Origin: a virus | Lineage: Duplodnaviria; Heunggongvirae; Uroviricota; Caudoviricetes | Reading direction: 5' to 3' (one strand) | Length of the DNA: 40,052 nt | Virus record (IMG/VR): IMGVR_UViG_2541047786_000001 | Position numbers and translations under genes: made by a program | Part shown: in pieces, positions 1-17,086 of the stretch | Numbering within the stretch: the stretch's first letter is position 1 | Layout: every line of letters starts with the position of its first letter | The notes under the pieces: generated by a model | Database searches by the model: none | What the model was told of the DNA's origin: nothing | Seen by the model: only the letters and a program-made list of their open reading frames with translations

Positions 1-1143
1 CTATGCTGTTTTGATATCTACGATAATCCAGTCTTTACCACGATCATCATTGTATCGGTCGGTCATTTTTCTGGATTTATGACCTAACAACTTTTGCGTA
101 TCCAGACCCTGTTCCCGATATAACCGTTCTGACAGAGATCGCTGCTCATGAAATGTGGGCGCAGTTCCTGGCTCCCATTTTATGCCACATTTTTCCCTGG
201 CCTTTTTAAAAGCCGTTGTAAGAGTATTTGCAGACACCTGGTCTCCTCTGTTTGCTTGAGAGGTAGTGTGACGGTAATGGACCAGATATTTACTAACAAC
301 AGCATCCCTGCACTGAGATATAACTTCACGAAGGGTAATATTCAGAGCATCGCATTTCAGGTTAAGCGGAATAGCAAGTTTTGAACCGGTTTTTTCCTGA
401 GTAATGTGCAACATGTCGTCCCAGATATCAGAGAATTTCAAATTGCAGATATCGCCTAAACGTTGTCCAGTGACAAGAGCAAGTAGCATCCCGCATTTTA
501 AATAGGGCTGCCGTCTGCTTACGCTGTCAAATATTGCCTGCCATTCGGGCAGTGATAATCTTTGGCGGTTTACTCGATTTCGCGGTTGTTTTGTTGCCTG
601 CGCTGGGTTAAATCCTGGCGGAACATGTCCTGCGTGTTGTGCTTCTTTGAAGACGTCGATCAACACCATTCTCACGACTTGCGCCATCCTGTTATGACCT
701 TCAGCCTTTACAGCATCAATTATTTCGGCAATATCAAGTGCGGTAATATCCTTGAGGTGTTGCATTCCACAATGCTCACGGAAAAGACGAATGGGTTTGC
801 CTTTTTGCCGATAGGAGTTGGGTCTTAGTTCATTATGTTGCAGCCTGTCCTCCTGGATAGAAATATATTTATCAAGCCATTCTGTCACCGTAATGTCTGA
901 GCGCCTGCCTTTCATTCTTTCTAGACGCTCATTGACGCTTAATATTTGTCGGGTACGTTGTTCAGCAATAATGGTATTTGCTTCAGTAGCAACTTGTTTT
1001 GCTTCATTCTCATCAGTTCCTAAGCTATGAAAACGACCGGATAGTGGATGTTTGTATTGCCAATATACCTTTCCGGTTCGCTTATCTAATTTGCAATATA
1101 AATTGGGTATAGAGATTTTGTGAGATCGGGGTCTAGCAGCCAT
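1..1143 (-). CDS. int: Phage tyrosine integrase (lambda Int family), complete
   Basis: 380-aa ORF with stop TAG at 1-3 (minus strand). Aligns by eye along its length with lambda Int, including the C-terminal HELRSL...LGHK...Y...DDRG region. Overlaps the upstream xis by 11 bp, as in lambda. Confidence 0.9.
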   Translation of the reverse strand: MAARPRSHKISIPNLYCKLDKRTGKVYWQYKHPLSGRFHSLGTDENEAKQVATEANTIIAEQRTRQILSVNERLERMKGRRSDITVTEWLDKYISIQEDRLQHNELRPNSYRQKGKPIRLFREHCGMQHLKDITALDIAEIIDAVKAEGHNRMAQVVRMVLIDVFKEAQHAGHVPPGFNPAQATKQPRNRVNRQRLSLPEWQAIFDSVSRRQPYLKCGMLLALVTGQRLGDICNLKFSDIWDDMLHITQEKTGSKLAIPLNLKCDALNITLREVISQCRDAVVSKYLVHYRHTTSQANRGDQVSANTLTTAFKKAREKCGIKWEPGTAPTFHEQRSLSERLYREQGLDTQKLLGHKSRKMTDRYNDDRGKDWIIVDIKTA

Positions 1144-1369
1144 CAGCGATTATCCGTTGGAGTTTTGGGTTTGCGTTTATTGGGAGTTGCGGTTCTGCAA
1201 GCGTTCCTACAAAACGGGAATTTCGGTCAATCATCCAGTAGCGACCAACTTTTATAGCGGGTGGGGCCATCATTTTCCCTTGCGCGTATTTTTTCAGAAC
1301 TCGCTCACTTGGTGCTAAGTCCCCAAATTCTTCTTTAGCCCAGTCCTGTAAAGTGATTAGTCGAGACAT
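1133..1369 (-). CDS. xis: Excisionase (Xis-like, winged-helix)
   Basis: 78-aa ORF directly upstream of and overlapping int. N-terminal LITLQDW resembles the lambda Xis LTLQEW motif. GGAGG ribosome-binding site 6-7 nt upstream of the ATG at 1369. Confidence 0.75.
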   Translation of the reverse strand: MSRLITLQDWAKEEFGDLAPSERVLKKYAQGKMMAPPAIKVGRYWMIDRNSRFVGTLAEPQLPINANPKLQRIIADGC

Positions 1370-1508
1370 TTGTCCTCCTCTTAGCTGCTGAGGGAGTTTG
1401 TGACCGATATATCTGACATGATATTAAGCTCATGGCAGGTACATCTCTTGACTGGTCATAGAGATAAATTTAATGCTGAGAAATGCAGTATTGAATTTAT
1501 CAATTTTT

Positions 1509-1748
1509 CTATTTCCTGCGTATGGCACGTAACTTCTTAATGTGTTCTGCTGTTTCGATCTCTTCAGCTATCCGATCTGCGTCAGCTTTATTCACAGGTT
1601 CAAAGTCATGATTAAAGCGGAACATGCTGGCGATACATGTTCTGCCTTTTCGGATGTAGTGAACTTTGTTGTGAGTGGAACGCAGGATTTTGCAGGGAGT
1701 GCCGTGGTGGTCGACGTACCAGGTGTTAGGGTAAATCACTCTGAACAT
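1509..1748 (-). CDS. Hypothetical small early-left protein
   Basis: 79-aa ORF with an AAGG ribosome-binding site about 7 nt upstream of the ATG at 1748. Same strand and operon context as neighbouring early-left genes. No recognisable motif. Confidence 0.45.
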   Translation of the reverse strand: MFRVIYPNTWYVDHHGTPCKILRSTHNKVHYIRKGRTCIASMFRFNHDFEPVNKADADRIAEEIETAEHIKKLRAIRRK

Positions 1749-1773
1749 TCTTGACCTTGTGTTGTGCGGATTG

Positions 1774-2058
1774 TTATTCAGTGCCGATATTTACCTTTAT
1801 CGCGTATACCTTTACCGGTTTATCACCGAAGTGCGGATGTGTGATTGTCTTCACTTCATATCCGTCATACGGAACATCAACTCTGCGGCTGGAATCGTCG
1901 CGCTTCGGATATCCCTTTGTGATAATCAGGCGGTCATGCTTACGGTTAACGAGGCGCTTTTTCCAGTAGTCATTACACAGGCGATACTCTTCCGTTTTCT
2001 CTCCGCGAATCATGGCATCGAAGTATTCACCTTTAACGGCAAGTTGCAGGTTAGCCAC
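1774..2058 (-). CDS. ASCH/PUA-like small protein (putative)
   Basis: The track ORF 1774-2142 has no ribosome-binding site at its first Met. An in-frame GTG at 2058 is preceded by AAGGAG with 6-nt spacing and overlaps the stop of the upstream gene (GTGGCTAA). The KGEYFDAMIRGEKTEEYR segment resembles the ASCH-domain N-terminus; the domain call is from memory. Confidence 0.5.
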   Translation of the reverse strand: MANLQLAVKGEYFDAMIRGEKTEEYRLCNDYWKKRLVNRKHDRLIITKGYPKRDDSSRRVDVPYDGYEVKTITHPHFGDKPVKVYAIKVNIGTE

Positions 2059-2791
2059 GGTTAACTCCTTGCTGTGTGGCGTCGAGTAATAAATCCCACA
2101 ACCGCTGAGAGCAATTTCCGCATGTACAGCGTTGACCCACAACGTTTATCGCGTTGCTGATTTCCGGCGTTACCTGTTTAGGAACCATAACCCAACCATC
2201 CGGAGTTACCGGAAGCGAGAACGGCAGCACATCTCTGTGAACAAGTTTTTGCTGTGACAGGTTATCCAGAACTTTCTGTACTGCTGCATCACCGAATACA
2301 CCAAGCGCATCTGCCATAACTCCTACAACCTGATAAGCCTCAGCGCATACCGTGGATAAACCATCCGGAATTACCGGAGAGTTGCCGGGTTCTTTAATGT
2401 GCAAGCGAGGCTCACCATCTTTTGGCTCAGGCCACTGGCGCTCCATGTTGATCTTCAATTTATCTTCCATAGCAACGGTAATTTCAGCATCGCTGATGCC
2501 AGCACGGCGCTGTGCATCCCACAACAGAAACTGCATATCAGCCCACTCGCTAAGATCGTCTGGTTCGGCTGCGGCTTCCAGTGCCTCTTTTGAGAGGTGT
2601 TTCAGTGGACCAATGGGGCCAACGCAGCCAAATGTGGAGTCAGACCATTTGGCATGCTCGTGGCGAATCTGTTCGCGTTCCAGTGATGCCAGTGCAATTC
2701 GTGCTAGTTCCATTTGTTCGCCACGAGTAAGCCCGTTTTCAAGCGGATTTTTAATGAACAATTCAATACGTTCTTTGGTAATAGTGGTCAT
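2051..2791 (-). CDS. Hypothetical protein with N-terminal MazG-like NTP pyrophosphohydrolase-like region (possible dATP/dGTP diphosphohydrolase family)
   Basis: 246-aa ORF. The segment KEALEAAAEPDDLSEWADMQFLLWDAQRRAGISDAEITVAMEDKLKINMERQW fits the all-alpha MazG/HisE pattern (E..E, EWAD, K..N..R.W). The C-terminal half carries a CTCGNC cysteine cluster. ATGA overlap with the downstream-of-operon gene at 2788-2791. Confidence 0.6.
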   Translation of the reverse strand: MTTITKERIELFIKNPLENGLTRGEQMELARIALASLEREQIRHEHAKWSDSTFGCVGPIGPLKHLSKEALEAAAEPDDLSEWADMQFLLWDAQRRAGISDAEITVAMEDKLKINMERQWPEPKDGEPRLHIKEPGNSPVIPDGLSTVCAEAYQVVGVMADALGVFGDAAVQKVLDNLSQQKLVHRDVLPFSLPVTPDGWVMVPKQVTPEISNAINVVGQRCTCGNCSQRLWDLLLDATQQGVNRG

Positions 2792-2997
2792 GTGTTAATC
2801 CTCAAAACTTTATGCCCGGGCGCAAAAGTACGTGTTTTGTCTTTGCTTATTCGCCACCCGTCTTTACGGGCCTCTTTTGCACAACCAGACCATGACGTAC
2901 CGATATACTCACCGAAGTCTGGCACTGGATATACACCTTCCGTACACTGGCGACAATCACAATAGAGATGCATGGTGTAACTTGCGGCAATAGCCAT
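2788..2997 (-). CDS. Small Cys-rich protein (putative zinc-binding), likely start at internal ATG 2997
   Basis: The track ORF 2788-3039 has an in-frame ATG at 2997 preceded by AAGAGAG and placed 1 nt after the TGA of the upstream remnant ORF (TGAtATG). CDCRQC plus a further Cys within 69 aa. Confidence 0.5.
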   Translation of the reverse strand: MAIAASYTMHLYCDCRQCTEGVYPVPDFGEYIGTSWSGCAKEARKDGWRISKDKTRTFAPGHKVLRINT

Positions 2998-2998
2998 A

Positions 2999-3139
2999 TC
3001 ACTCTCTTTTTCCCTGAAGCATGGCAGCGTGGCAGGCATCCTCTACGCCCTTAACTGCATCTGCGCAGTAGTTATAGCGATTGCATTCCACTAACTTCTG
3101 CCTGAGATTTTCAATTGCTTGCGCGACATCAGCCTGTAT
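2999..3139 (-). pseudogene. 3-prime remnant of an early-left gene truncated by IS911 (reads ...DVAQAIENLRQKLVECNRYNYCADAVKGVEDACHAAMLQGKRE*)
   Basis: The frame is open from the IS911 boundary at 3140 down to TGA at 2999-3001, with no start codon. Its stop is coupled to the start of the Cys-rich gene. Own translation. Confidence 0.35.
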
Positions 3140-3170
3140 TTGAAGTGGTCAACAAAAACTGGCCACCGAG

Positions 3171-4318
<1,148 letters not shown>

Positions 4319-4526
4319 TATGGCACCTGTGTTGTTCTGAGGTGAGCATATCACCTCTGTTCAGGTGGCCAAATTCAGTAAACCACTTCACTTAAATAGT
4401 GGATTGCGGTAGTAAAGATTGTGCCTGTCTTTTAACCACATCAGGCTCGGTGGTTCTCGTGTACCCCTACAACGAGAAATCGGATAAACTCTATTCACCC
4501 CTACAGAGAGCAAAAGAGAAACGCCG

Positions 4527-5108
4527 ATGAACAACTCATGGTGGCAGGAACTAATGCATTTTTTCCTGCAAGGAATGACACTTAAACAGTTGATTCATAT
4601 GCTAATCATCCTGATCATATTGATTATTGTTATGCCGGTAAGCGTAAAAGAATGGATAAACCTGCATAGTCCAGAAATCCTTCCTCATTACTGGATGTAT
4701 TACATCCTGTTGTTTTGCGTTAGCTATGTGCTTAACGGCGTTGTTAATTCCGCTTATCACGCTGTGACTGAAAGAATTGAGGTATTCGCTGCTCAGAAGC
4801 GCAAATCTAAAGAAGAAAAATATGTGCAAGATTTGTTTGATTCGTTAACTCTTGGAGAAAGAGCGTATTTGGCATTCGCTGTAGCCGCTAATAACCAGCT
4901 ACAAACGGAAAAGGGCGCTCATGAATCAATTTCATTGCTCAAAAAAGGACTCCTCGTTCGAAGGCCTCCTGCTGTTGGATATCCTGATACCGACCGTTTC
5001 GTTATCCCTGAAAGCTATAGACATGAGTGCTACATTAGGTTTGCCGGGAAGGCAGACAGCCTTATGGATGAACTTATCGCTCAGGATAAGCATGGCAAAA
5101 ACAAGTAA
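4527..5108 (+). CDS. sieB: Superinfection exclusion protein B-like inner-membrane protein
   Basis: 193-aa ORF with a strongly hydrophobic N-terminal region (LIHMLIILIILIIVMPV, YYILLFCVSYVLNGVV). Sits convergent to N in the early-left region, as sieB does in Rac. The name is from memory of SieB, not from a search. Confidence 0.6.
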   Translation: MNNSWWQELMHFFLQGMTLKQLIHMLIILIILIIVMPVSVKEWINLHSPEILPHYWMYYILLFCVSYVLNGVVNSAYHAVTERIEVFAAQKRKSKEEKYVQDLFDSLTLGERAYLAFAVAANNQLQTEKGAHESISLLKKGLLVRRPPAVGYPDTDRFVIPESYRHECYIRFAGKADSLMDELIAQDKHGKNK

Positions 5109-13439: not shown

Positions 13440-14522
13440 TTAGAACTGATAAACCAGACCTACAGCGACGATGTCGTCGGTATCAATACCAGCTGTTTTG
13501 GTAAACTTACTATCGTCAATTAAGTTGATTTTGTAATCAACAAAAGTGGACATGTTTTTATTAAAGTAGTAAGTAGCACCGACATCGACATACTTGACTA
13601 AGTCTCGGTCACCATGAACACCAAGGTCTTTACCTTTTGACTGAAGGTAAGCAACAGATGGACGCAGACCGAAGTCAAACTGATATTGTGCTACTGCTTC
13701 AAAGTTTTGTGCTTTGTTTGCAATATGGTTATTACCAAAAACGGTCATATTCTGAGTTTCAGAATATGTGGTAGCCAGATAGATATTGTTCGCATCATAT
13801 TTCAGGCCTGCAGCCCATACTTCCGCATTTTTGCCGGAGGCATTGAATTTGCTCTTACCATAGGCGACCTGACCGTCAGTGCGATCTGATTTAGCATAGG
13901 TTGCACCCACGCCGAATCCTTCATACTCATAAGTAGTGGAGAAACCGAAACCATCACCATTGGCTTCAGTTACGTCAGTGCGGTCATTTTTACCCTGATA
14001 CTGAGCAGCAAAGTTCAGGCCATCGACCAGACCAAAGAAGTCGTTGTTACGATAAGTTGCAACACCAGTAGTGCGACCAGTCATGAACACATCTGTTTGG
14101 GTCCAGGTATCACCACCGAATTCTGGCAGAACGTCAGTCCACGCACCGATGTCGTATGCTACACCGTAGTTACGGCCGTAATCGATTGAGCCGTAATCAC
14201 CAAATTTCAGGCCTGCAAATGCAAGACGGGTTTTGTCTTTGGAAGAACCTTGAGATTCAGCACGGTTGCCTTTGAATTCATATTCCCACTGACCGAAACC
14301 AGTCAGTTGATCGTTGATTTGGGTTTCACCTTTGAAGCCAAGACGGGCATAAGTAGTATCACCATCATCTGCATCATTAGAGGAGAAGTAGTGCTTGGCA
14401 TTAACTTTCCCGTATAGATCCAGCTTGTTACTGTCTTTATTATAAATTTCAGCTGCCTGAGCAGACATCGCCATCAGTACTGATGCAGCTACAGCAGAAA
14501 TTGCCACTGTTAATTTTTTCAT
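13440..14522 (-). CDS. nmpC: Outer-membrane general porin (OmpC/NmpC/Lc family), phage-encoded moron
   Basis: 360 aa from ATG 14522, with signal peptide [23 protein letters not shown] and the C-terminal aromatic residue (VGLVYQF) typical of beta-barrel porins. The 20 extra N-terminal residues of the track ORF are excluded. Same position and orientation relative to Q and the lysis genes as nmpC in DLP12. Confidence 0.9.
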
Positions 14523-16281: not shown

Positions 16282-16312
16282 AGCTGCCCATATCGATGGG
16301 CAACTCATGCAA

Positions 16313-16606
16313 TTATTGTGAGCAATACACACGCGCTTCCAGCGGAGTATAAATGCCTAAAGTAATAAAACCGAGCAATCCATTTACGAATGTTTGCTGG
16401 GTTTCTGTTTTAACAACATTTTCTGCACCACCACAAATTTTTGCTGCATCGACAGTTTTCTTCTGCCCAATTCCCGAAACGAAGAAATGATGGGTGATGG
16501 TTTCCTTTGGTGTTACTGCTGTAGGTTTGTTTCCAACAGTAAACGTCTGTTGAGCACATCCTGTAATAAGCATTGCCAGAGCGGCAGAAAACAACATTTT
16601 TTTCAT
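16313..16606 (-). CDS. bor: Bor lipoprotein (serum-resistance, lysogenic conversion)
   Basis: 97 aa from ATG 16606 (MKKMLFSAALAMLITGCAQQ...EARVYCSQ), collinear with lambda Bor. Lipobox LITGC. Confidence 0.85.
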   Translation of the reverse strand: MKKMLFSAALAMLITGCAQQTFTVGNKPTAVTPKETITHHFFVSGIGQKKTVDAAKICGGAENVVKTETQQTFVNGLLGFITLGIYTPLEARVYCSQ

Positions 16607-17086
16607 CTTATTATCCTGCATTGTTAAAAACGGCAGAATCCTATGTGACAACAATTAAACGATAGTTAAATGGATTGATGAAAATTAAAACTACACAGGT
16701 GGGCTCAGACTATTGGAGGAAGTTGGGGACACTCAGAATCCTGTGGAATGAAATAAACCGGTCTATCCGTCCATTACCCTTTTAGCTGCGCTGTATCGTC
16801 GCCGTATTCCCGCATTAACCATGACCGTAGCCCGACGGGGAATTCCTTCTGCGTGAGTGTGCGGGAATAATTAAAAACGATGCACACCGGTTTTTTACCG
16901 CGTTAATGATTCGCGGGTTTATCCCGGTGCGATGGTGGAAGAAACAGGAAGCTGTATTACAGAAAGTGCTACTACTGTATCCCGATGCGATGTATGTAAT
17001 GTGAGTCAGATAATGGCACAGGATGTGGTGATGTGGCAGTCTGGAACACAGGATATATTGTCAGAATAAGACCCGTAGGAATAAAA

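Follow-up and report, generated by a model that had tools for sequence, protein, structure and literature searches.

A mosaic exo-xis accessory protein with a DUF550/MazZ-type pyrophosphohydrolase core and a neighboring minimal ASCH protein in a lambdoid prophage of Escherichia coli

The best described relatives of the phage protein considered here are MazZ of cyanophage S-2L and gp40 (MazZ-2) of the Acinetobacter phage SH-Ab 15497, both from Z-genome phages. These two proteins have in common the Pfam domain PF04447 (DUF550) and an all-alpha MazG/HisE fold. Their activities were described (PMC8342488; PMC12884076), as were the roles of the metal- and phosphate-binding residues of MazZ (PMC8342488). 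Substrates differ within the family, S-2L MazZ using (d)GTP only and gp40 both dATP and dGTP (PMC8342488; PMC12884076). DUF550 chemistry is already established from the Z-genome phages, in which MazZ relatives are either standalone or fused to DUF5664 (PF18909). Phage-encoded, single-domain MazG-type pyrophosphatases directed at host nucleotides are also represented by Atd1 and by cyanophage MazG, the likeness being in this case one of chemistry.

Two further groups of proteins are relevant. Lambda Ea22 and the Ea22-like and DUF551 proteins are encoded in the exo-xis region, the mosaic nature of which is documented in the literature, and are themselves built of blocks. The ASCH proteins, among them E. 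faecalis 3IUW, P. horikoshii PH0355, E. coli YqfB, Z. mobilis ZmASCH and human EOLA1, are small beta-barrels with a helix inserted between strands 1 and 2. Their GxKxxExR motif and its place in the alpha1-beta2 region were defined previously (PMC6803910). Searches of the literature returned no experiments on ASCH proteins from phages, nor on DUF550 proteins from enterobacteria.

The window, that is the whole stretch of DNA that was analyzed (40,052 nucleotides), belongs to a phage-21/lambda-like E. coli prophage integrated at icd. A preliminary description of its early-left part had pointed out a 246-aa open reading frame overlapped at its stop by a smaller, GTG-initiated one preceded by a ribosome binding site. 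Both frames are real, as are the 8-nt overlap (GTGGCTAA) and the AGGAG motif 6 nt upstream of the GTG codon; the small product, given as 95 aa, has in fact 94 residues, the 95 codons including the stop (Table 1). RefSeq uses the same start (WP_001304460.1), which is ATG in many related phages. At its other end, the ATG of the 246-aa frame overlaps the stop codon of the preceding small frame (ATGA), so that the genes form a translationally coupled chain. Downstream of the DUF4222 gene, annotation places xis (1133-1369) and then int (1-1143). The genes of the 246-aa and 94-aa proteins lie next to xis/int, on the upstream side, in the early-left, pL-transcribed exo-xis region, whose lambda counterpart holds ea22 and ea8.5. 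The "ea/b-region" slot proposed initially is right as to the ea genes but not as to the b region. None of the four local proteins has a match in NCBIfam.

Table 1. Features of the exo-xis segment. Positions are those of the window; aa numbers refer to the 246-aa protein.
Feature	Position	Strand	Basis or remark
DUF4222 protein, directly downstream of the ASCH gene	1509..1748	-	PF13973, E=6e-19
94-aa ASCH-fold protein, GTG start	1774..2058	-	ORF, stop codon included
246-aa mosaic exo-xis accessory protein (DUF550 domain-containing)	2051..2791	-	ORF, stop codon included
Junction encoding ..QQGVNRG, with the ASCH ribosome binding site (AGGAG, 2065-2069) and start codon (2056-2058)	2054..2074	-	comparison of upstream genes
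Swappable tail module (aa 201-239); CTCGNC occupies aa 222-227 (2111-2128)	2075..2191	-	module swaps in homologs
17-nt linker repeat, copy 2, CCGGTAACTCCGGATGG, encoding ..PVTPDGW	2196..2212	-	pattern search
Middle cassette, aa 148-192, between the two linker repeats	2216..2350	-	module swaps in homologs
17-nt linker repeat, copy 1, CCGGTAATTCCGGATGG, encoding ..PVIPDG..	2361..2377	-	pattern search
DUF550/MazZ-type NTP pyrophosphohydrolase core, aa 38-137	2381..2680	-	PF04447, AF2, Foldseek, residue mapping
Variable N-terminal leader, aa 1-37, ending ...IALASL	2681..2791	-	swapped among homologs, rest retained
Small ORF upstream of the 246-aa ORF, phrog_926	2788..3039	-	RefSeq uses the 69-aa start at 2997

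The available data argue for two independent exo-xis accessory genes, a reading that we hold to be probable: one would encode a mosaic protein carrying a purine (d)NTP pyrophosphohydrolase cassette of the DUF550/MazZ type, the other a minimal ASCH protein.

The N-terminal half of the 246-aa protein had been compared with MazG/HisE on the basis of short motifs, all of which are present: E69-A-L-E72, E82-W-A-D85 and K111-L-K-I-N115-M-E-R118-Q-W120, together with C222-T-C-G-N-C227 near the C-terminus. This assignment is borne out by domain searches and modeling. PF04447, annotated as dATP/dGTP pyrophosphohydrolase, matches aa 42-137 over positions 1-96 of the 97 of the model, with an E-value of 8.2e-42 and a score of 141.8 bits (gathering cut-off, 23 bits). 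The same model also recognizes the characterized enzymes S-2L MazZ (2e-11) and SH-Ab 15497 gp40 (5e-8). In the AF2 model, the core is a confident helical bundle (pLDDT 78-89 per ten-residue block) with helices at 23-54, 60-75, 80-96 and 101-117 (pLDDT around 80-89), as in the all-alpha MazG/HisE fold. Its best PDB match in Foldseek is S-2L MazZ (7ODY; probability 1.0, TM 0.62-0.67, with a modest E-value of 0.07), followed by YpjD, Bacillus MazG and RS21-C6.

The characterized relatives are distant. The core is 34% identical to gp40 over 71 aa and has no significant BLASTP match with S-2L MazZ, the link with the latter being supported by Pfam, by profiles and by the fold. Sequence searches of both local proteins against PDB chains gave chance matches only, and a profile of 140 homologs reached MazZ 7ODY alone (E=1.3), on the KLxxNxxRxW helix; a comparison of folds was needed. 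In a profile alignment, E69, E72, E82, D85, D92, K111, N115, R118 and W120 correspond to E35, E38, E50, D53, D60, K76, N80, R83 and W85 of S-2L MazZ. The acidic ligands EXXE...EXXD and the K..N..R.W motif of the last helix are those of gp40 and MazZ. All nine residues, and about 70 core positions together with the catalytic residues, are at least 90% conserved in the 140 homologs, which share 33-95% overall identity with the query. This conservation, contrasted with the overall divergence, indicates purifying selection on the enzyme module. Taken together, sequence and model identify the N-terminal half as a MazG/HisE-type all-alpha NTP pyrophosphohydrolase domain, with every metal- and phosphate-binding residue retained.

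By homology, E69, E72, E82 and D85 would bind divalent metal ions, and K111, N115 and R118 would position the triphosphate. The chemistry expected from gp40 and S-2L MazZ is the conversion of (d)NTP to (d)NMP and PPi. Among the purine (d)NTPs, dGTP would be the most likely substrate and dATP a possible one. The residue of S-2L MazZ that corresponds to D92 is in contact with the 2-amino group of guanine. The arrangement of the two genes had been taken to suggest a nucleotide-pool-modifying or modified-nucleotide-sensing function. From PF04447, the 7ODY match and the conserved catalytic residues, the first of these is a reasonable reading for the 246-aa protein, but not as a function shared by the pair, since the genes are adjacent in about 5% or less of their closest relatives (see below). 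The hydrolysis would most likely take place in early lytic growth, soon after induction or infection, and serve to adjust or clean the pool of purine nucleotides.

A role in the synthesis of 2-aminoadenine DNA was also considered. Unlike in the Z-genome phages, the DUF550 gene is here unlinked to purZ or datZ, and the phage DNA is ordinary. PurZ and DatZ of S-2L and SH-Ab 15497 gave nothing significant in the window (tblastn, best E 0.4), and neither purZ nor datZ is annotated in the near-identical C25 prophage. As a phage devoid of PurZ and DatZ cannot use the enzyme for this purpose, the role was rejected.

Cleaning of the pool could, in a narrower sense, mean removal of damaged or non-canonical purine dNTPs such as 8-oxo-dGTP, dITP or 2-oxo-dATP, which would spare the replicating phage from mutagenesis after SOS or oxidative induction. 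The structural neighbors of the core include the house-cleaning enzymes MazG, YpjD and RS21-C6, and the exo-xis region is reported to be tied to oxidative-stress induction of lambdoid prophages (PMC4699033). However, the closest characterized relatives hydrolyze canonical dGTP and dATP, and sequence features specific for oxidized bases are absent. We thus regard such a specialization as unlikely.

The target could alternatively be a signaling nucleotide. Depletion of (p)ppGpp, along with protection from the toxicity of TIR-STING, has been described for the phage MazG-like pyrophosphatase Atd1 (bioRxiv 10.1101/2022.06.09.495361). By comparison, an enzyme acting on (p)ppGpp or on another alarmone or second messenger might bias the lysis-lysogeny decision or blunt abortive infection. 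The neighboring exo-xis genes ea22, orf63 and the TraR-like orf73, moreover, are reported to affect lysis-lysogeny or to mimic the action of ppGpp/DksA on RNA polymerase. Nothing, however, shows PF04447 members acting on (p)ppGpp, and the aspartate equivalent to MazZ D60, together with the pocket residues, suits a substrate of the (d)GTP type. Unlike for Atd1, no anti-defense phenotype is known for the DUF550 proteins of lambdoid phages. A link to counter-defense, put forward in the preliminary description, was not found, and a PADLOC scan, which covers defense and anti-defense families, gave no match for the 246-aa or the 94-aa protein. A signaling target accordingly appears quite improbable.

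Returning to the reading of two independent accessory genes, the architecture of the 246-aa protein differs from that of the MazZ enzymes, since the DUF550 core is embedded in a mosaic. From the N-terminus on, the leader is followed by the core, then by the middle cassette, which has a 17-nt direct repeat on either side, and finally by an exchangeable 47-aa tail. The leader also starts proteins that lack DUF550. The 17-nt linker pattern occurs exactly twice in the window, where none is expected, both times in the 246-aa gene, and, of the 165 loci that were fetched, 119 have it where modules meet. The middle cassette is joined to other N- and C-terminal modules in five homologs (P0246, P0260, P0264, P0300 and L026), and an otherwise identical protein (P0392) lacks it, the core meeting the tail directly at the linker. 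The 246-aa protein thus represents a single allele within a hyper-mosaic gene family, the members of which consist of cassettes joined at conserved linkers. The AF2 model is of low confidence for the C-terminal 110 residues, including the middle cassette (pLDDT 39-56). With a first local HMM, the middle cassette (here aa 136-190) scored 46.6 bits and looked like a degenerate second copy of the hydrolase core. This was an artefact, because the alignment columns were contaminated by proteins having the cassette but no core, and a clean core HMM gave -1.7 bits.

The cysteine cluster, pointed out initially in the C-terminal half, is not a feature of the hydrolase. It belongs to the exchangeable tail, which is also found on proteins without DUF550 (an L029 frame, P0390, P0260 and P0264). 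A search of a large protein database with the tail only returned nine proteins, among which CTCGNC is conserved in two diverged tails (P0394 and P0395, 72-75% identical). The motif is reduced to CC in P0310, and other tail subtypes of the VPKxxTPEM type are devoid of the cysteines. As regards a possible structural zinc site, for which four Cys/His ligands would be expected within the module, the tail has only three cysteines (222, 224 and 227), and aa 201-246 contain neither histidine nor a further cysteine. The leader, the middle cassette and the CTCGNC tail are interchangeable appendages, possibly serving in oligomerization or partner binding as in Ea22.

The region, the transcription unit and the block mosaicism of the 246-aa protein are those of lambda Ea22 and of the Ea22-like/DUF551 mosaics. 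Its leader, its GNSPVTPDGW linkers and its C-terminal modules are common to proteins with Ead_Ea22 (PF13935) and DUF551 (PF04448). Most DUF550 alleles end in DUF551, whereas the present one has neither DUF551 nor the Ead_Ea22 coiled-coil signature, their place being taken by the hydrolase core, by the middle cassette and by the tail with CTCGNC. As PF13935 gives no match at E up to 1, while it is present in same-slot relatives (6e-27 in an L032 frame, for example), membership of the Ea22 family itself was rejected. In phage ev017, a distinct gene located farther upstream is Ea22-like.

The small protein had been described as ASCH/PUA-like at its N-terminus. Its fold and motif agree with this view, its Pfam score does not. 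PF04266 (ASCH, PUA-like clan) covers the N-terminal 43 residues only, with 15.5 bits (E=0.029) for a gathering cut-off of 21.2 bits; RefSeq nevertheless names the protein ASCH, and it matches phrog_625 (E=5e-49). The model is a beta-barrel in which helix alpha1 follows strand beta1 and precedes strand beta2, as in ASCH proteins, for which Foldseek gives a high probability and a modest E-value (0.014). The residues G19, K21, E24 and R26 of the GxKxxExR motif are invariant in 27 homologs, and the motif has the same numbering in human EOLA1, even though the compared ASCH proteins are only 13-19% identical to the 94-aa protein. In the ac4C amidohydrolase YqfB, the position matching E24, which is kept in the phage protein, is presumably a Thr. 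The 94-aa protein is a minimal ASCH domain in which a polar pocket is conserved; its ligand is presumably a nucleotide or RNA.

The overlap raises the question of whether the two genes form a functional module, in which the ASCH/PUA-like protein would sense a modified nucleotide or nucleic acid and control the MazG-like hydrolase, itself depleting or reshaping the nucleotide pool. Besides the physical overlap and the shared coupling junction, the idea has a precedent in PUA-like sensors with nucleotide-degrading effectors, including rare cases where a MazG-like effector replaces calcineurin (bioRxiv 10.64898/2026.01.15.699771). However, the junction CAGGAGGTTAACC|GTGGCTAA is also found behind many unrelated upstream genes with ..QEVNRG C-termini (Ea22-like, DUF551, TraR/DksA, DUF4752 and others), so that it is a fixed feature of the 5' end of the ASCH gene, whatever gene precedes. 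In a redundant sample of the 80 closest matches of the ASCH gene, about 30 different clusters of genes are found upstream; DUF550 lies directly there in four loci, and in a fifth other genes or sequence separate ASCH from a DUF550 core in the vicinity. Conversely, in the 80 closest DUF550 loci, also redundant, an overlapping ASCH gene occurs in two and lies about 260-290 nt away in two more. Moreover, eight of these 80 loci carry an ASCH stub of 11-32 aa, often of 11 aa with DUF550 intact. In contrast with the PUA-Cal-HAD and PUA-MazG-HAD systems, there is neither conserved co-occurrence of sensor and effector nor a HAD gene among the neighbors, and PADLOC recognizes neither protein. Such rarity of adjacency, about 5% or less among the closest relatives of either gene, argues that the pair is not a unit, and we consider a joint function very improbable. 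That the two genes touch is due solely to the way in which this part of the phage is put together, from cassettes that can replace one another. In the preferred reading of two separate genes, ASCH would be translated from its own fixed ribosome binding site and start codon, any upstream cassette gene running into that junction.

That the DUF550 segment is an inactive passenger of cassette shuffling, in a protein with no enzymatic role, is hardly credible. In its favor are the extreme mosaicism, the frequency of truncated, fragmentary or stub alleles and the C25 copy, which RefSeq gives as a shortened CDS plus a pseudogene fragment. Against it, many genomes and an isolated phage share the intact frame with 100% identity, and the purifying selection noted above bears on the catalytic core.

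The 1.7-kb locus is 100% identical in CFT073, ATCC 25922 and phage ev017, the genes of the inducible phage PhiR57_1 are likewise identical, part of the 1.8-kb stretch is found in 4422 of 5426 complete genomes, and DUF550 hydrolase genes are very common in E. coli prophages. Both proteins are already known, RefSeq and phage records using exactly these domain names; the 246-aa protein is labeled DUF550 or dATP-dGTP pyrophosphohydrolase domain in RefSeq genomes and in phage ev017 (YP_009909599.1). In the present prophage, an IS3-family element lies between pL and the two genes, which makes their normal expression uncertain. A search of the coding strand from the IS element to int found no sigma-70-like promoter, and there is thus no evidence for independent transcription of the two genes.

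A broader proposal, to which we give little credence, would be that a DUF550 cassette on an Ea22-type modular scaffold is a nucleotide-directed effector deployed by lambdoid phages with ordinary DNA. Soon after induction, it might deplete dGTP/GTP or else a second messenger or alarmone, thereby steering lysis-lysogeny or defeating nucleotide-based host immunity. Different host partners would be reached through the interchangeable tails, the conserved one with CTCGNC among them, and ASCH might handle a modified nucleotide of the same pathway in the minority of phages having both genes.

As a discovery, the find is ordinary and matters little. Nevertheless, the cassette structure, with its 17-nt linker repeats and its fixed downstream junction, offers a simple picture of how accessory genes are assembled, and the case is a warning against inferring function from adjacency in the exo-xis region.

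The window is a lambda-like prophage with icd as integration site. Its segment 1400-3140 has 100% identity to the corresponding DNA of E. coli CFT073, ATCC 25922, ABU 83972 and others, and to that of phages ev017 and PhiR57_1. RefSeq gives the same boundaries for both ORFs considered here, naming the small one "ASCH domain-containing protein" and the large one DUF550. The preliminary description was correct as to ORF coordinates, overlap, ribosome binding site, sequence motifs and the 246 residues of the large product; the small product has 94 residues, not 95. Likewise, the proposed lambda accessory-gene slot is the ea22/ea8.5 position, in the exo-xis region, and not the b region. The small ORF starts with GTG (2056-2058), with AGGAG 6 nt 5' of the start, and its start region shares 8 nt, GTGGCTAA, with the stop of the large ORF.

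Features of the prophage early-left region and modules of the 246-aa protein
Feature	Position	Strand	Remark
int + xis, phage-21-type	1-1369	-	
DUF4222 gene	1509-1748	-	upstream of xis
94-aa ORF (ASCH)	1774-2058	-	upstream of xis
246-aa ORF (DUF550)	2051-2791	-	upstream of xis
small ORF (phrog_926)	2788-3039	-	stop overlaps ATG of 246-aa ORF (ATGA)
porin/iss morons	approx. 13440-14520 and 16310-16610		mapped from C25 annotation
leader	aa 1-37		
core	aa 38-137		
first linker			GNSPVIPDG, between core and middle cassette
middle cassette	about aa 148-192		
second linker			LPVTPDGW, between middle cassette and tail
tail	aa 201-239		
C-terminal end			QQGVNRG

In E. coli C25 (L001 6652-7392), RefSeq splits the intact 246-aa ORF into a 205-aa DUF550 CDS and a 'partial' pseudogene fragment. 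This split is an annotation inconsistency and not a real disruption: the C25 DNA is 99.97% identical to window 1-3140, and the ev017 annotation leaves the ORF undivided. The neighboring phrog_926 ORF has a CxCxxC motif (YCDCRQC) and a fourth Cys further on. The spacing equals that of CTCGNC in the tail encoded by the next gene, which may be a coincidence; the ORF may otherwise encode a small zinc-binding protein. Near the lysis genes, host-fitness morons comprise an OmpC-like porin gene and iss (increased serum survival lipoprotein).

The MazG/HisE-type N-terminal half proposed for the large protein is borne out. Pfam PF04447 matches residues 42-137 (E=8.2e-42), and an AlphaFold model, built with 140 homologs as input, shows a helical bundle, confident over residues 1-120. 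Its best Foldseek matches are all four chains of cyanophage S-2L MazZ (7ODY; probability 1.0, TM 0.62-0.67, identity 27-29%), followed by YpjD, Bacillus MazG, RS21-C6 and HisE-type enzymes. In a profile alignment, E69, E72, E82 and D85 correspond to the MazZ metal ligands E35, E38, E50 and D53, K111, N115, R118 and W120 to K76, N80, R83 and W85, and D92 to D60, which contacts the guanine 2-amino group. Each of these positions is conserved in at least 90% of the 140 aligned sequences. We therefore accept the protein as a member of the DUF550/MazZ family and infer that it is an active purine (d)NTP pyrophosphohydrolase. The PF04447 model also recognizes two enzymes with measured activity, S-2L MazZ, whose product from (d)GTP is (d)GMP (PMC8342488), and the DUF5664-DUF550 protein from Acinetobacter phage SH-Ab 15497, which acts on dGTP and dATP to yield dNMP and PPi (PMC12884076).

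Homologs retain this core and swap all surrounding parts. In most alleles the C-terminal end is DUF551 (PF04448); here a tail of 47 aa takes that place and has CTCGNC at residues 222-227. DUF551 is a portable domain, also found on dATP/dGTP pyrophosphohydrolases (PMC10834534). Both linkers are coded by a 17-nt direct repeat, CCGGTAAYTCCGGATGG, at 2361-2377 and 2196-2212 on the minus strand, the only sites of this pattern in the window (0 expected). The pattern recurs in 119 of the 165 loci collected, where it marks the borders between modules in a wide variety of exo-xis mosaic genes; it is probably a homology patch for cassette shuffling. The motif holds an inverted repeat, CCGG..N..CCGG, and codes PV(I/T)PDG; the two copies, 165 nt apart, flank the middle cassette. 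Since one homolog (P0392) has its core fused straight to the tail at the linker, the cassette appears to have been gained or lost between the repeats. Block mosaicism of this kind was described for lambda Ea22 in the exo-xis region (PMC10834534), but a Pfam search found no Ead_Ea22 signature in the 246-aa protein.

The Cys cluster described for the C-terminal half of the large protein lies in a swappable tail. Like the middle cassette, this tail is also seen on proteins lacking the DUF550 core (P0246, P0260, P0264, P0390 and an ORF of locus L029). CTCGNC is kept in same-subtype tails with 72-75% identity (P0394, P0395), is shrunk to CC in homolog P0310 (51% identity) and is missing from other tails that share the general VPKxxTPEM type. 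The module has only three cysteines and contains neither a further Cys nor any His, and the model there is of low confidence; a metal site is at most a possibility. A second exchangeable tail type has a DnaJ-like zinc-finger pattern, CPECFGDDDCDTCDGSGR, and is carried by ORFs 5' of ASCH (L026:2830-4005, L020, L021, L047) and by DUF550 ORFs (L120, L123, L125, L126); thus, more than one form of cysteine-rich tail exists among the mosaic proteins.

The ASCH fold proposed for the small protein is supported by Foldseek matches to 3iuw, PH0355, ZmASCH, PF0470 and YqfB (probabilities 0.9-0.99) and by the ASCH signature GxKxxExR (PMC6803910), formed by G19, K21, E24 and R26, which are invariant in 27 homologs. 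Because many further polar residues are also invariant, including E11, Y12, D14, Y50, D54, D55, R59, Y64 and H74, sequence conservation suggests a specific ligand pocket. Matches to this family, phrog_625, number 642 in a large protein database (E <= 0.001); among those listed, the organism-named ones are all from Enterobacterales.

A joint function had been read from the arrangement of the two genes. Among the 80 viral contigs that match the ASCH protein most closely, the gene ending at the ASCH start is the DUF550 gene in just four, each of them identical to the window; elsewhere this place is taken by an 86-aa unknown protein (22 loci), a zinc-finger protein of TraR/DksA type (13), DUF4752 (6) and some 25 different mosaic proteins, genuine Ead_Ea22+DUF551 proteins among them. 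Conversely, in the 80 contigs that best match the DUF550 protein, ASCH overlaps in only two, lies 260-290 nt downstream in two more and is reduced to a stub of 11-32 aa in eight; both samples are redundant sets of closest matches, a bias that should, if anything, favor finding the pairing. The junction CAGGAGGTTAACC|GTGGCTAA (or ATGGCTAA) is constant whatever the upstream gene, and gives upstream proteins their ..QEVNRG ends. Translational coupling therefore belongs to the ASCH 5' boundary and is no evidence of a MazG-ASCH partnership. The pair is not a unit, and the best-supported view is that of two independent early-left accessory genes. The stubs, all directly 3' of the conserved junction, are an identical 11-codon version (V/MANLQLAVKGE, stop) in L085, L118, L124, L132, L134, L148 and L157 (about 4640-4900) and one of 32 codons in L102; they are a recurrent deletion allele beside intact DUF550 genes.

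An IS3-family element (ISEc52-like, 3139-4392) sits between the two genes and the remaining pL operon, so that their expression in this prophage may be abnormal. In ev017 this position is occupied by early-left genes spanning about 5.4 kb (exo, bet, gam, kil, cIII and ral, together with the remainder of the exo-xis region); window 1-3140 corresponds to L002 4602-7741 and window 4388-4991 to L002 13137-13741 of the ev017 locus. Recombination genes have therefore been lost from the prophage, and the IS alone separates DUF550/ASCH from pL. A search of the coding strand over 1100-4700 gave no promoter-like site. In E. coli C25 the IS is present in three copies, with a duplicated TraR/Ea22 segment.

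By its family, the DUF550 module would most likely hydrolyze dGTP, perhaps dATP or GTP, to monophosphate and pyrophosphate, with metal ions that would be held by its four acidic residues. In a phage with ordinary DNA, candidate roles are tuning of the purine nucleotide pool and house-cleaning of damaged purine dNTPs. By analogy with Atd1, a phage MazG-like protein that hydrolyzes an alarmone/signaling nucleotide (bioRxiv 10.1101/2022.06.09.495361), hydrolysis of such nucleotides is another candidate. The suggested link to counter-defence was not upheld, a PADLOC scan of the two proteins matching no defence or anti-defence family. A MazZ role of the Z-DNA type was rejected, PurZ and DatZ both being absent from the window. 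All the substantive points already stand in annotations or in the literature, and the residual interest is modest: prophage DUF550 hydrolases are very common, and their activity here is a predicted one.
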